Positions 2,522 through 20,341 of a DNA stretch of 29,490 nucleotides are shown here, one piece after another (position 1 is the first letter of the stretch; each line of letters begins with the position of its first letter). Origin of the DNA: a bacterium. Its GTDB lineage: Bacteria; Patescibacteriota; Minisyncoccia; UBA6257; JAGOQP01. The DNA lies in assembly GCA_021780615.1 (NCBI GenBank), contig JAJXYJ010000018.1:1-29490 (forward strand). The letters run 5' to 3'. The notes under the pieces are model-generated. The model was not told where the DNA came from, did not search any database, and saw only the letters and a list, made by a program, of their open reading frames with translations. The translations under genes and the position numbers were made by a program.

Positions 2522-2734
2522 TTACTCCCCTTCCTCTTCTTTGCCTTCATCGTCGGTAGATTCGTCATCCTCATCTTCAGAATCATCATCGATGAAATCA
2601 TCATCGTCACCGTAATCAAGATTTTCATCCTCTACTTCCTCTTCTTCTGTAGCATCTTCTTCTTCGTAATCTTTTTCTGCATGTAATGCATCGAGAACAA
2701 ATGATGGTAATGTTCGTGAAGTTTTTGTTGTCAT
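2522..2734 (-). CDS. Small (~70 aa) extremely acidic hypothetical protein (short N-terminal segment plus poly-Asp/Glu tail)
   Basis: MTTKTSRTLPSFVLDALHAEKDYEEEDATEEEEVEDENLDYGDDDDFIDDDSEDEDDESTDDEGKEEEGE. About 60% of the last 50 residues are D/E. It has its own terminator. The start is taken at the internal Met, since the longer tool ORF would overlap the promoter/5' region. Confidence 0.5.
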   Translation of the reverse strand: MTTKTSRTLPSFVLDALHAEKDYEEEDATEEEEVEDENLDYGDDDDFIDDDSEDEDDESTDDEGKEEEGE

Positions 2735-2834
2735 GGTAAAAATAAATAATATTGCGACCTGTACACCCTTGCGAGTGCAATGCATAAACTATATCGTACA
2801 GGCTATTGTTGTCAAATGGTGTGTGTGGATGAAT

Positions 2835-3947: not shown

Positions 3948-4397
3948 TTATGTGTTGTGTATATTTTTATAACGACGCAATGTATGACCTGTGTCCCACA
4001 ATTCTATTGCGATAGCATCAAGGCGATATCCATTCCTAGAAAGATCAGGATGTTTATTTGCATACCACTGTGAAATTTTTGAAAACAAATTTATTTTTCT
4101 ATAAGTAAGGTTATGTTCCGGAATATAGGGTTTTAAATTAGTATACTCTTCCGGATTTTCCGGAATGGGTGTGGAGAACTGTGGATAACTTTCCGGAAAC
4201 AAAATAATGGATAATGATGATTGATTGAGGGTTTTAACTTCTGAAAAAACTAAGGTTTTATCTATGTCTTTTGAGATTATGTCAATTTCACCAAATTTAG
4301 TCATAAAGTTTCTGTCGATAATTTTATGACCAATACCCTCAAGATATCCACAGGCGATTTCCTCACCAATCATTCCAATTACCTTATTTTTTATCAT
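3948..4397 (-). CDS. yraN: YraN/UPF0102-family predicted endonuclease
   Basis: GEEIACGYLEGIGHKIIDRNFMTKFGEIDIISKD…TLVFSEVKT matches the UPF0102 core. An insertion of roughly 40 aa lies between the core and the C-terminal helix. Confidence 0.65.
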   Translation of the reverse strand: MIKNKVIGMIGEEIACGYLEGIGHKIIDRNFMTKFGEIDIISKDIDKTLVFSEVKTLNQSSLSIILFPESYPQFSTPIPENPEEYTNLKPYIPEHNLTYRKINLFSKISQWYANKHPDLSRNGYRLDAIAIELWDTGHTLRRYKNIHNT

Positions 4398-4465
4398 ATA
4401 TAAAATATATATAAGTGGAAATTAGAAATCAATTTTTTATAGGATGCTTTTATTGAATTTTCTTT

Positions 4466-4745
4466 AATTTTTGTACCAAATGTTTCACGTGAAACATTTG
4501 GTACAAAAATAGGGCCTAAATATGATATAAAATGTTTCACGTGAAACATTTTATATCGTTTTGAGTCTGGCAATGGAGTCTGGCAACTTTTGTATGTATA
4601 GATTTTAAGCCATTTTTTAGTTTCCGGACTTATTTTGTTGCCAGATATGTTTCACACTATGTTTCACACACAAAAAAGAATAGGTTTTAAGCTGTATGTG
4701 AATAATTTCATCCACAATTATAATATTTATATTGCCAGACTCATT
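4466..4745. promoter_or_regulatory. Divergent yraN/obg control region with two long perfect palindromes and repeated half-sites
   Basis: A 42-nt perfect palindrome TTTTTGTACCAAATGTTTCACGTGAAACATTTGGTACAAAAA lies at ~4468-4509. A 34-nt perfect palindrome GATATAAAATGTTTCACGTGAAACATTTTATATC lies at ~4524-4557. Both share the core AATGTTTCACGTGAAACATT. Direct repeats ATGTTTCACA x2 (~4647-4671) and GAGTCTGGCAA x2 (~4563-4586) are present, with the reverse complement TTGCCAGACTC at ~4732-4742. Confidence 0.6.
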
Positions 4746-4827
4746 CCGGATTATTTTAAAAAGTAAGATTTTATGTATGTAGTTTTAAAATATTGCTAAA
4801 AAACATCTTTTGTGTGAGAATGGCAAA

Positions 4828-5802
4828 ATGCTTATAGACGATGTAAAGGTAAAAATAAAAGGAGGAGATGGTGGAAATGGTGCTGTTGCTTTTAATAAAA
4901 ATCTAATGGAACTTGGTCCAGCGGGAGGAAGCGGGGGAAATGGCGGTGCGGTATATATAGAAGGATCATCTGATATTAGTCTTTTAAATCAATTTAGATT
5001 TAAAAAGAAAATAGAGGCAGAGGATGGCCAAGATGGAAGGTCTCAATTTCGAGATGGAAAAAGGGGAGACGACATGATATTAAAAGTTCCCGTAGGAACA
5101 ATTGCACATAATATAACAACGGGAAGTAGCGAAGATGTGACGCATGTAGGTCAACGCATTTGTGTTGCTCATGGAGGAAGAGGAGGGAAGGGGAATTTTC
5201 TTTTTAGGTCATCGACCAATGTGAGTCCAAAAGAATTTGAAGAAGGGAACCTTGGCGATGTATATGAATTTAGATTTGAATTAAAATATATTGCCGATGT
5301 AGGAATTGTGGGACTACCGAATGTGGGGAAATCAAGTCTTTTAAATGAATTAACAGATGCAAAGAGTAAGGTTGCAAATTATCAATTCACCACACTGGAA
5401 CCAAACCTTGGCACGTATTATGAATTGATACTGGCTGACGTGCCGGGACTTATAGAAGGAGCTTCGGAAGGGAAGGGATTGGGGGATCGATTTTTACGGC
5501 ACATTGAACGCACGAAGGTGTTGTTTCATTTAGTGTCTGCGGAGTCTGATGATGTGTGGCATGATTACCGTGTGGTGCGTGATGAGTTGAGTGCATACAA
5601 TGCAGCGTTGGGGAAAAAAGAAGAATATATATTTTTAAGCAAGAGTGATGATGTTCCCATTGATGATCTTCATAAAAAAATAGCACTATTTAAAAAACAT
5701 AAAAAAAATATAGTGCCGCTATCCATTCTTGATGAGGAGAGCGTAAAGAATGTTACGATAATACTGAATCATCTTCAGGAGAAAAAGATTGCTAAGAAAT
5801 AA
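4828..5802 (+). CDS. obg: GTPase Obg (short form lacking the C-terminal OCT/TGS extension)
   Basis: Gly-rich Obg fold (KGGDGGNGAVAF…GGSGGNGGAVY). G1 motif GIVGLPNVGKSSLLN. DVPGLIEGA switch region. ATG taken at MLIDDVKV; the tool ORF starts at an upstream TTG. Confidence 0.9.
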   Translation: MLIDDVKVKIKGGDGGNGAVAFNKNLMELGPAGGSGGNGGAVYIEGSSDISLLNQFRFKKKIEAEDGQDGRSQFRDGKRGDDMILKVPVGTIAHNITTGSSEDVTHVGQRICVAHGGRGGKGNFLFRSSTNVSPKEFEEGNLGDVYEFRFELKYIADVGIVGLPNVGKSSLLNELTDAKSKVANYQFTTLEPNLGTYYELILADVPGLIEGASEGKGLGDRFLRHIERTKVLFHLVSAESDDVWHDYRVVRDELSAYNAALGKKEEYIFLSKSDDVPIDDLHKKIALFKKHKKNIVPLSILDEESVKNVTIILNHLQEKKIAKK

Positions 5803-18265: not shown

Positions 18266-18646
18266 ATGGATTTTAATAAAAAAAATTTGTTCATAACATG
18301 GGGGGTACGTGCGATAACCGCATGTGGAGTCATTCTCTTTTCGCTTCCTCTGTGGGCACGCGCCGCACTTATTACTTGTGGAAATGATCCCAATGGTGCC
18401 CCCTGTACGTACAATGATTTTAAAACGACTCTTGATGGAGTGGTACAGTTTTCCATACTCTACATCGCTATTCCTGCGGCGGTGATAGTGATTGTTATTG
18501 GAGGCATTATGATGATTTTAGATGGTGGTAATGAGTCTCGATTCAAACAAGGAAAGAAAATGATACAGGGAGTTATTATTGGATTGCTCATAACATTGGG
18601 AGCATGGATTATTGTTAAAACAATTCTCAATCTTTTATTTACCTAA
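18266..18646 (+). CDS. TrbC/VirB2-like (T4SS pilin-like) small secreted two-helix protein, paralog 1 of 5
   Basis: Sec-type signal peptide with AxA site (…LPLWARA|A). The mature part has two hydrophobic helices separated by a Lys-rich loop (…IVIVIGGIMMILDGGNESRFKQGKKMIQGVIIGLLITLGAWIIV…). Confidence 0.55.
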   Translation: MDFNKKNLFITWGVRAITACGVILFSLPLWARAALITCGNDPNGAPCTYNDFKTTLDGVVQFSILYIAIPAAVIVIVIGGIMMILDGGNESRFKQGKKMIQGVIIGLLITLGAWIIVKTILNLLFT

Positions 18647-18649
18647 GGT

Positions 18650-19048
18650 ATGCAGTATACTAGGCGCATATATATGAAGAGATTCATTGTCACAATTCCT
18701 GTATTATATGTATTAAGCATAGCACCGAGTGTTTTTGCGAACGGTACAGGGGATACAGGGGGAGCAAATCCAACAGACATACAACTTACCAATCCATTGA
18801 GTGGTAATGTAAACGATGTTCCTTCTCTGTTAAATAAGATTATTCAGTACCTGCAGATTATCGCGGTACCACTTTTGACAATCGCCATTATTATGGGGGC
18901 GTTCCAAATGCTTACCGCCGGAGGAGATGAAGCTAAATTTAAAAAAGGCAAAAAAACAATTACCTATGCGGCTATTGGCGCGGCGGTCATTATGGCGGCG
19001 AGCGGTATTATTTTAATTATCAAACAATTTTTAGGGGCAACGTCGTAA
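18650..19048 (+). CDS. TrbC/VirB2-like small secreted two-helix protein, paralog 2
   Basis: Signal peptide …SIAPSVFA|N. Core …IQYLQIIAVPLLTIAIIMGAFQMLTAGGDEAKFKKGKKTITYAAIGAAVIMAASGIILIIKQF… is alignable with paralogs 1 and 3-5. The start could be the internal MKRF at 18674. Confidence 0.55.
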   Translation: MQYTRRIYMKRFIVTIPVLYVLSIAPSVFANGTGDTGGANPTDIQLTNPLSGNVNDVPSLLNKIIQYLQIIAVPLLTIAIIMGAFQMLTAGGDEAKFKKGKKTITYAAIGAAVIMAASGIILIIKQFLGATS

Positions 19049-19085
19049 CGTTGGTTGCAACGCATCCCCGCATTTATTATTTATT

Positions 19086-19436
19086 ATGATATACACTACA
19101 AAACTAAAAGCAGCCACATCGTCAATCTTTCTTTCACTACTAGTTCTTCCGGCTTACGCGGCGGCACAATCGCTTCCCAGCGCACCAATCAGTAGTTACA
19201 ATGATATTGTGTTACTTTTGGAGAAAGCGGTGCAGTGGATGTATCAAATATTTTTTATTCTTGCGGTGCTCTTTATCCTTGTTGCCGCGTTTACCTACCT
19301 GCGTGCTGGCGGGGATGCCGCGCAGGTAAAGAAGGCACAAACCATACTCAAGAACGCGGTCATTGCCATTGTTATTGCATTGATATCAACGGCTGCGTCG
19401 GTCATTATTCAAAATTTTATCAACCCTCATAATTAA
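19086..19436 (+). CDS. TrbC/VirB2-like small secreted two-helix protein, paralog 3
   Basis: Signal peptide …LVLPAYA|AAQ. Core AVQWMYQIFFILAVLFILVAAFTYLRAGGDAAQVKKAQTILKNAVIAIVIALISTAASVIIQNF. Confidence 0.55.
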   Translation: MIYTTKLKAATSSIFLSLLVLPAYAAAQSLPSAPISSYNDIVLLLEKAVQWMYQIFFILAVLFILVAAFTYLRAGGDAAQVKKAQTILKNAVIAIVIALISTAASVIIQNFINPHN

Positions 19437-19858
19437 TGACATCACGAAATGGTATGAAGAAATATTTATTACTCATTGCGCTTATTTTTCTCATTGGACT
19501 TCCCTTTGTAGTCCATGCGGGTATCATTGATCCCTTTAATAAGGGAGATATGACCTCTCCTATTCAATCAGCAGGGGGTGCTTTGGGAGTTGTCATTGTT
19601 GCTATTCAGTGGATGTATACTATCTTTTTTATTGTAGCAGTGTTCTTTATTTTAATGGCGGCATACAATTTTGTATTGGGGGGAGCGAATGAAAAAAAAG
19701 TTGCCGCCGCAAAAGGACAGTTAAAATATGCCGCCATTGCCATCGTGGTAGCACTCCTTGCTTCGGGTATGAGTTTGGTGATTAGTAATTTTTTGCAAAA
19801 TCCCGCAAGTGCCGGATCGCAACCGACCACCACGATTCCACCAACGACCACTCTCTAG
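19436..19858 (+). CDS. TrbC/VirB2-like small secreted two-helix protein, paralog 4 (Thr/Pro-rich C-terminal tail)
   Basis: TAATG stop-start overlap with paralog 3. Signal peptide …LPFVVHA|G. Core AIQWMYTIFFIVAVFFILMAAYNFVLGGANEKKVAAAKGQLKYAAIAIVVALLASGMSLVISNF. The tail is …GSQPTTTIPPTTTL. Confidence 0.55.
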   Translation: MTSRNGMKKYLLLIALIFLIGLPFVVHAGIIDPFNKGDMTSPIQSAGGALGVVIVAIQWMYTIFFIVAVFFILMAAYNFVLGGANEKKVAAAKGQLKYAAIAIVVALLASGMSLVISNFLQNPASAGSQPTTTIPPTTTL

Positions 19859-19939
19859 GTATCTCTTGCGACCAGATGTTGTATAGTATATACTGCCTGC
19901 AAGCATTCAAAGGTCGTTGCTTTTAAATAATGAATTGCT

Positions 19940-20341
19940 ATGAAAAATAAAATCATTCCCGTGTTCGTCTATATGTTCGTCATTGGCATTGTGGTATTGA
20001 GTGTCGGTCCCGCATTTGCACAGGTTATTATCCCTGGACAAACGCCGGCTCCATTCATTAACCAACAGGGCCCCAGTAGCGTTTCAGGATGGGTACAGGT
20101 AGTACTTACTGTTATTAAATGGTTTTACAGCATCATCTTTATCATTGCTGTATTCTTCATTCTTATGGCGGCATTCCATTTCGTCACCAGTAAGGGAGAT
20201 CCTGGTAAGACAAAGACAGCACGCTCGGAACTTATGTATGCAGTCGTAGGAATCGCCGTAGCATTGCTTTCCTATGGAATTGTGGCGTTTATCGGTAACA
20301 CTGTAAATACCGCAACAAACACGCAAGGAACATCCTTCTAG
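19940..20341 (+). CDS. TrbC/VirB2-like small secreted two-helix protein, paralog 5 (separated by an ~80-bp spacer with a possible own promoter)
   Basis: Signal peptide …SVGPAFA|Q. Core VIKWFYSIIFIIAVFFILMAAFHFVTSKGDPGKTKTARSELMYAVVGIAVALLSYGIVAFIGN. A terminator follows. Confidence 0.55.
   Translation: MKNKIIPVFVYMFVIGIVVLSVGPAFAQVIIPGQTPAPFINQQGPSSVSGWVQVVLTVIKWFYSIIFIIAVFFILMAAFHFVTSKGDPGKTKTARSELMYAVVGIAVALLSYGIVAFIGNTVNTATNTQGTSF

Follow-up and report, generated by a model that had tools for sequence, protein, structure and literature searches.

The yraN–obg spacer

The window, by which we mean the whole 29.5-kb stretch of DNA that was analysed, is a housekeeping stretch of a Patescibacteria (CPR) chromosome. 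Within it, yraN and the GTPase gene obg are divergently oriented, and the spacer between them holds two long perfect palindromes accompanied by several kinds of short repeat (Table 1). An earlier note on this DNA had given the palindromes as 42 and 34 nt long, both perfect, with an identical 20-bp core. We found that both are perfect and that the second does have 34 nt, but the first measures 44 nt; the 20-bp core is present, inside a 22-bp sequence common to both palindromes (AAATGTTTCACGTGAAACATTT, 4478-4499 and 4530-4551). Their centres are 52 bp apart, as the note had estimated, and the other repeats that it described were recovered as well, namely a half-site occurring twice in direct orientation and a second motif, GAGTCTGGCAA, occurring twice directly and once inverted. 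A contig that was assembled independently from another sample (L081) has a spacer that is 100% identical, which speaks against an assembly artefact. Gene callers placed an open reading frame of 51-59 amino acids over the palindrome pair, in the window (4394-4573, minus strand) and on two other contigs (L088:9567-9722 and L217:9551-9730). This reading frame is probably spurious, because AATGTTTCACGTGAAACATT reads M-F-H-V-K-H on both strands.

Table 1 Features of the yraN–obg region and the third parS site (window positions unless a contig is named)
Feature	Position	Strand	Remarks
yraN (UPF0102), left flank	3948-4397	minus	variable insert holds motif copies
Four TTCCGGAA-type copies inside yraN	4113-4126, 4146-4170 (two), 4188-4201	.	
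Perfect DnaA-box 9-mer TTATCCACA	4180-4188	minus	yraN codons S-Y-P-Q
DnaA-box-like 9-mer ATATCCACA	4344-4352		in yraN codons ACGYL; conserved in nearly all lineages
parS-1, 16-bp core TGTTTCACGTGAAACA	4481-4496	.	perfect palindrome 4467-4510, 44 nt
Block AAATATGAT (AAAATATGGTT in relatives)	4518-4526	plus	adjoins left side of parS-2; invariant alignment columns
parS-2, 16-bp core TGTTTCACGTGAAACA	4533-4548	.	perfect palindrome 4524-4557, 34 nt
Two direct GAGTCTGGCAA (TCYGGMAA family)	4563-4573 and 4576-4586	plus	in every lineage
TAGATTTTAAGCC box, first copy	4599-4611	plus	conserved
Two inverted TCYGGMAA-family copies, TTTCCGGACTT, GTTGCCAGAT	4621-4645	minus	
Tandem half-parS satellites, TATGTTTCACAC twice	4646-4657 and 4658-4669	plus	12-bp units
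TAGGTTTTAAGC box, second copy	4681-4692	plus	conserved
Inverted ATTGCCAGACTCA then ATTCCGGATT (TCYGGMAA family)	4730-4752	minus	inverted GAGTCTGGCAA copy at 4732-4742
obg (GTPase), right flank	4810-5802	plus	gene callers start at ATG 4828
Third parS (28-nt perfect palindrome) with its half-site satellites	L092:16308-16391		about 10.3 kb to the left of the first letter of the window

Match to the chromosomal parS consensus

The central 16 bp of each palindrome are an exact match to the consensus of chromosomal parS, TGTTNCACGTGAAACA, which is described in a review as the conserved parS of most bacterial chromosomes (PMC7022226). The exact 16-mer found here, TGTTTCACGTGAAACA, has been used as parS in several publications. 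It occurs at only two places in the 29.5-kb window even with up to three mismatches tolerated (0.27 matches expected), and the chance of the 14 and 9 further symmetric pairs that extend the two sites, given the local base composition, is about 6e-8 and 2e-5, respectively. The palindromes are thus beyond chance, as had been claimed. The earlier note had also raised the possibility of a repeat dispersed throughout the genome. Over about 65 kb of the source genome, we found three copies at up to three mismatches, with no dispersal as a repeat family.

Position relative to the replication origin

We extended the window leftwards with two NCBI MAG contigs carrying the same genes. On the source contig, jag-yidC-rnpA and dnaA-dnaN lie directly before the first gene of the window. 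Both the rpmH-dnaA spacer and the dnaA-dnaN spacer contain perfect DnaA boxes. The GC skew changes from negative to positive across dnaA, where it has its minimum, and stays positive all through the window. These DnaA boxes and the skew switch place oriC at dnaA. The dnaA-dnaN genes, the perfect DnaA boxes and the skew minimum lie 5.5-7 kb to the left of the palindrome pair, and parS-1 is 6.9 kb to the right of the dnaA start. On the left side of dnaA, at a distance of 7.8 kb, a third perfect parS closely follows polA; the arms of its 28-nt palindrome are unrelated to those of parS-1 and parS-2. A few perfect parS sites bracketing the origin are the classical arrangement. In the relatives L216 and L217, the synteny on the origin side of the parS pair is the same; the third parS is absent from both, and polA adjoins jag there.

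Several other features were noted along these contigs. The dnaA-dnaN segment of L216 (2109-4767) has the opposite orientation to that in the source genome and in L217. A diversity-generating retroelement with a target protein of the FGE-sulfatase fold, a bAvd gene and a reverse transcriptase is inserted close to the origin, between jag and polA (L092:10832-14168); its GC content is about 0.50, compared with 0.40 nearby, and both L216 and L217 lack it. Downstream of a solute-binding protein gene, at 18266-20341 of the window, lie five tandem paralogues of small T4SS pilins (TrbC/VirB2-like), an arrangement kept in L216 and L217. An 87-amino-acid, extremely acidic (D/E-rich) open reading frame lies between PBP1 and ruvC (2522-2785, minus strand), and in the relatives with full gene tables (L088/L089, L216 and L217) a gene of similar size (87-91 amino acids, no Pfam match) is called at the equivalent position. 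In L084 (5194-6984), ftsH contains an intein with Intein_splicing and LAGLIDADG domains, giving a product of 1059 amino acids.

Conservation among relatives

Relatives were sampled through their Obg homologues and not through the motif. We found that seven lineages, with Obg identities of 100, 93, 83, 70, 69, 69 and 67%, each have two perfect parS sites in the yraN–obg spacer, and that both cores are invariant in all seven whereas the surrounding spacer has diverged. From the start of parS-1 to the start of parS-2, six lineages have 52-53 bp and L086 has 64 bp, which corresponds to about five or six helical turns. Comparison with close relatives had been proposed in the earlier note, and its outcome is that the cores are kept in the seven lineages but the palindrome arms are not. 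No parS was found within 4 kb of obg in 79 other Patescibacteria species representatives, whose Obg identity is 66% or less.

Clusters of parS also adjoin a yraN homologue in more distant Patescibacteria-like contigs (L193:8050-8700, L196:4700-5150 and L198:440-1100). In L193, full parS sites lie within the yraN reading frame, and in L198, dnaA/dnaN are 2.5 kb away. This pattern suggests an old linkage between yraN and parS.

ParB genes and the parS motif

We found no parB in about 65 kb around the origin (the window, L088, L092 and L094) using Pfam scans, gene tables and tblastn, a search that reached about 20 kb to the left and 35 kb to the right of the origin. The tblastn probe was a Spo0J sequence. 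The same probe detected ParB elsewhere: of the at least 120 metagenome loci listed with twin perfect parS, 70 have a Spo0J homologue (35-52% identity), mostly 1-2 kb off, which indicates that the probe works. The loci that combine twin parS with parB are a positive control for the meaning of the motif. We had considered twin parS sites about 50 bp apart to be an unusual trait, and this was ruled out, since at least 120 metagenome loci have twins. Among the metagenome contigs, L113 has 15 perfect parS sites in about 1 kb upstream of dnaA (1044-2100), and L185 has 17 parS sites in 9.7 kb. A literature search on ParB in Patescibacteria gave nothing relevant.

A predicted origin-proximal centromere

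We consider it very probable (roughly 0.88), judging from sequence and position, that the palindrome pair represents twin canonical chromosomal parS sites which, together with at least one more parS across dnaA, would form an origin-proximal centromere. The support in this analysis comes from the identity to parS, the position beside the origin, the retention in relatives and the association of the motif with parB elsewhere. We infer that ParB binds the palindromes in the source organism, and a cognate ParB is assumed there. The sites themselves are ordinary, being a known type of element in a new organism.

Following established ParABS biology, a Spo0J-type ParB dimer would grip each 16-bp site through its helix-turn-helix domains. 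CTP-bound ParB would then close to a clamp, quit parS and slide along the adjoining DNA, and repeated loading would build a partition complex beside oriC. This complex would be segregated by ParA and would recruit SMC.

Half-site satellites

Near the full sites lie additional half-sites. The tandem ATGTTTCACAC half-site repeats are invariant in all seven lineages, and four lineages add an inverted copy that produces an everted pair. Six of the window's eight GTTTCAC heptamers fall in the yraN–obg spacer. The third parS has satellites of its own, a direct GTGAAACA followed by an everted half-site pair that lies inside an inverted repeat with 15-nt arms, CATCTCTGTGAAACA-TTAT-TGTTTCACAGAGATG. The half-site copies are related to the palindromes, as the earlier note had held.

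The same association was seen in the comparison set. Among the at least 120 twin-parS loci, the density of half-sites is 10-fold higher in the 150 bp next to parS (1.18 vs 0.11 per kb), a figure that residual kinship between contigs may inflate, and the half-sites near parS have ATGTTTCAC in common, with G or A as the next base. The same layout of twin parS and two direct half-sites recurs in an unrelated low-GC group whose parB is about 1 kb off. ParB of P. aeruginosa binds GTTTCAC half-sites (PMC10419367, PMC7022226). By analogy, ParB probably also occupies the conserved ATGTTTCACA half-sites next to the parS pair.

Long palindrome arms

The length of the perfect palindromes at parS-1 and parS-2 differs among lineages. 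It is 44 and 34 nt in the window and L082, 30 and 24 in L083, 28 and 24 in L217, 20 and 24 in L001 and L084, and 22 and 16 in L086; parS-1 has 18 in L216. Only 16-24 bp are kept across relatives, and the long arms are lineage-specific, which weakens the earlier claim that palindrome length implies a special function. The sequence CAAATG...CATTTG is common to the window, L083 and L217; outside it the arms differ, but each is internally symmetric.

We compared these arms with 344 non-redundant parS sites from the at least 120 twin-parS loci, so that the statistics describe twin-parS loci only. Among the loci listed, positions 9 and 10 on each side of the parS centre prefer A or T, and the 20-bp core described earlier therefore corresponds to a wider parS consensus. 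Five or more extra symmetric pairs were found at 12.8% of the 344 sites and seven or more at 7.6%. In a control that matched the left flank of one site with the right flank of another, the figures were 0.8% and 0.18%, respectively; residual kinship between contigs may inflate this enrichment. Only two of the 344 sites reach 14 extra pairs, as in parS-1. Considering the difference between 12.8% and 0.8%, long arms are a recurrent property of parS, of which the window is an extreme case.

From this pattern, only the central 16-24 bp appear to be selected as a binding site. Template switching is known to homogenise and expand inverted repeats (PMC13100816, PMC7202029, PMC8794818). The lineage-specific arms are most simply explained in this way: the 44-, 34- and 28-nt palindromes, the last at the third site, would be by-products of hairpin-templated template switching during replication, seeded by a perfect palindrome. 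The same arm pattern would be expected if symmetric flanks, or cruciform extrusion, had been selected for.

Accessory motifs around the parS pair

The GAGTCTGGCAA family, (A)(G/T)TCYGGMAA(A), has 10-16 copies per lineage on both flanks of parS, all of them between about -400 and +275 bp relative to parS-1. The first GAGTCTGGCAA-type copy starts 31-33 bp after the start of parS-2 in every lineage, and positions 4731-4743 are the perfect 13-nt complement of 4562-4574. Six of the ten TCCGGA hexamers of the window fall within 4117-4750. Every lineage retains in yraN a pair of TCCGGA hexamers 9 bp apart, which some lineages translate as IPENPE and others as ISGNSG; the retention of this pair across different reading frames indicates a constraint on the DNA and not on the protein.

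Two TAGRTTTTAAGCC boxes are conserved in the spacer across lineages, and the TAGATTTTAAGCC box was also found beside parS in the distant yraN-linked locus L198. Neither the TCYGGMAA motifs nor the TAGRTTTTAAGCC boxes were found upstream of obg in the 79 other species or at the third parS. The block at 4518-4526 resembles a -10 promoter element, and a promoter scan lists TTGGTA-17-TATGAT there. We also considered reading TGGCAA-N7-TGGCAA as a sigma-54 promoter. Judged by eye, neither its spacing nor its -12 element suits such a promoter, and relatives carry CCGGAAA in its place, so this reading was rejected. It is probable that the TCYGGMAA array, the TAGRTTTTAAGCC boxes and the AAATATGRT block either serve as binding sites for one or more further factors or are part of the obg and yraN promoters.

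A broader proposal can be made, although we regard it as less likely than not. Its first part is that the yraN–obg region is a clade-specific compound centromere, in which helically phased twin parS sites, fixed half-sites and 10-16 flanking TCYGGMAA sites would act together. The TCYGGMAA sites would be bound by a second DNA-binding protein, possibly a diverged ParB/Noc-like protein or a CPR-specific factor, and the array would be important enough to persist inside the yraN coding sequence across reading frames. The second part of the proposal, separate from the first, is that parS sites throughout the bacteria may tend to have extended palindromes, a general trait that had not been remarked on before and that could have arisen by mutation or by selection.

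Alternative explanations

The earlier note had read the palindromes as operators, at which a dedicated dimeric or tetrameric transcription factor would control obg and/or yraN by looping. The sites do lie in a divergent promoter region. The -10-like AAATATGRT block adjoins parS-2 and a candidate -35 element overlaps the right arm of parS-1, so that any binder here could affect transcription, and in some species ParB itself influences genes near parS (PMC7022226). We nevertheless consider this reading very unlikely, because the core is the universal parS sequence and a third copy lies across the origin at an unrelated, polA-proximal locus. Moreover, the same motif pairs adjoin parB elsewhere, promoter-like sites are no more frequent in the region than in shuffled sequences, and the restriction of parS at yraN–obg to one clade, none of the 79 other species having it within 4 kb of obg, speaks against an obg operator. 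The proposed obg/yraN operator or regulon is thus not upheld. What survives of the proposal is a dimeric, high-affinity helix-turn-helix binder that forms DNA-bridging complexes; a dedicated regulator does not, the core being parS.

It is very unlikely that the palindromes act in RNA, as hairpins in an obg leader with the direct and inverted TCYGGMAA copies as the strands of long-range helices. The predicted hairpins are very stable (-18.8 and -11.0 kcal/mol, calculated as DNA), the 13-nt complementarity described above is perfect, and the paired copies have changed together, reading GGCAA/TTGCC in the sub-clade of the window and GGAAA/TTTCC elsewhere. However, no Rfam family matched at its gathering score, the only matches being sub-threshold ones to eukaryotic miRNA-like hairpins, and the consensus fold downstream of parS-2 is weak (-5.7 kcal/mol, with a covariation term of +0.17). 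There are no terminator-like sites, the hairpin arms are not conserved, and all of the supposed helices consist of one motif that is also present on the other side of parS, inside yraN. With no U-tract terminator, no RNA family and unconserved arms, neither the RNA-hairpin role nor the cruciform role suggested earlier is sustained.

We also weighed whether the locus is part of the origin or a cluster of DnaA-titrating boxes (datA-like or DBC-like) instead of a centromere. It is origin-proximal, 6 of the 15 box-like 9-mers of the window (up to one mismatch) lie at -311 to +227 of parS-1, and two boxes are conserved in nearly all lineages. One of these, TTATCCACA, is perfect in the window, L082, L083, L001/L216, L084 and L217 and has one mismatch in L086. 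Both conserved boxes lie in yraN codons (SYPQ/H and ACGYL) and can be explained by protein constraint, and the others are not conserved; for TTATCCACA, protein and DNA constraint are inseparable because the box is within codons. Both flanks of the spacer have a firmly positive GC skew, which reaches its minimum 5-7 kb off, at dnaA. This reading, which leaves the parS cores unaccounted for, is highly improbable. Terminal-inverted-repeat-like 13-mers flanking a 156-bp segment might speak for a dispersed repeat, a remnant of a plasmid or phage, or a REP- or MITE-like miniature mobile element. This idea is extremely unlikely given the same orthologous position in seven lineages, the lack of dispersal in about 65 kb and the absence of matches among 72,556 plasmid and 50,697 phage records.

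Implications

Read as parS, the palindromes would locate the centromere in the genome of this uncultured CPR bacterium and, taken together with dnaA, its origin region. To our knowledge, nothing has been established experimentally about chromosome segregation in Patescibacteria. The conserved parS module, its half-sites and the array of the second motif offer concrete DNA probes for segregation in this group. That parS palindromes are often much longer than 16 bp and that half-sites cluster by full sites could refine models of ParB loading and retention. The remaining interest of the locus is secondary and lies in the clade-conserved accessory motifs, one of which overlaps coding sequence, and in the arm and half-site tendency of parS.

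Comparison with known systems

In its palindromic version, ATTTCCGGAAAT, the second motif is similar to the Noc-binding site (NBS), whose consensus we take to be ATTTCCCGGGAAAT. Noc is confined to Firmicutes, and the NBS differs from parS at two positions per half-site (PMC7383237). The likeness is a resemblance only: ATTTCCGGAAAT is 2 bp shorter at its centre and has another half-site geometry, and the motif mostly occurs as single non-palindromic units. Identity with the NBS, a 14/16-bp palindrome, was ruled out, since the TCYGGMAA palindrome has at most 12 bp and the host belongs to the Patescibacteria whereas Noc is found only in Firmicutes. Copies of TCYGGMAA are clustered at parS, whereas the NBS is spread over the chromosome.

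The A-box heptamer of P1 parS, presumably ATTTCAC, resembles the parS half-site. P1 parS, with its A-boxes, B-boxes and IHF site, is likewise a centromere of two repeat classes in several orientations (PMC2910045). It is, however, a plasmid site used by a ParB with a specialised dimer domain, and TCYGGMAA is unrelated to the P1 B-box, so that the resemblance is architectural only. In quasipalindrome template-switch mutagenesis (PMC7202029, PMC13100816, PMC8794818), arms are made identical and longer, which fits the internally symmetric arms of the window. The mechanism is documented in those systems, whereas in the window it is a candidate suggested by the arm pattern.

The half-parS sites of Pseudomonas aeruginosa (PMC10419367, PMC7022226) share with those of the window the heptamer GTTTCAC, their presence in addition to full sites and, plausibly, binding by ParB. 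In Pseudomonas, there are hundreds of them scattered genome-wide. At the parS clusters described here there are two or three, lying 20-110 bp from a full parS in a fixed arrangement that is tandem, everted or split; unlike those of Pseudomonas, these predicted ParB sites are invariant across lineages and have an extended consensus, ATGTTTCAC(A/G).

The closest likeness is to the chromosomal parS/ParB (Spo0J) systems of Bacillus subtilis, Caulobacter, Hyphomonas and numerous other bacteria, with which the window shares the identical 16-bp TGTTTCACGTGAAACA. As elsewhere, the few copies are clustered within a few kb of oriC and kept in relatives, and the motif co-occurs with parB. The sites of the window differ from the usual parS in that parB is not adjacent, the twins are fixed five (or six) helical turns apart, symmetry extends to 44, 34 and 28 bp, and the pair is set within further conserved motifs.
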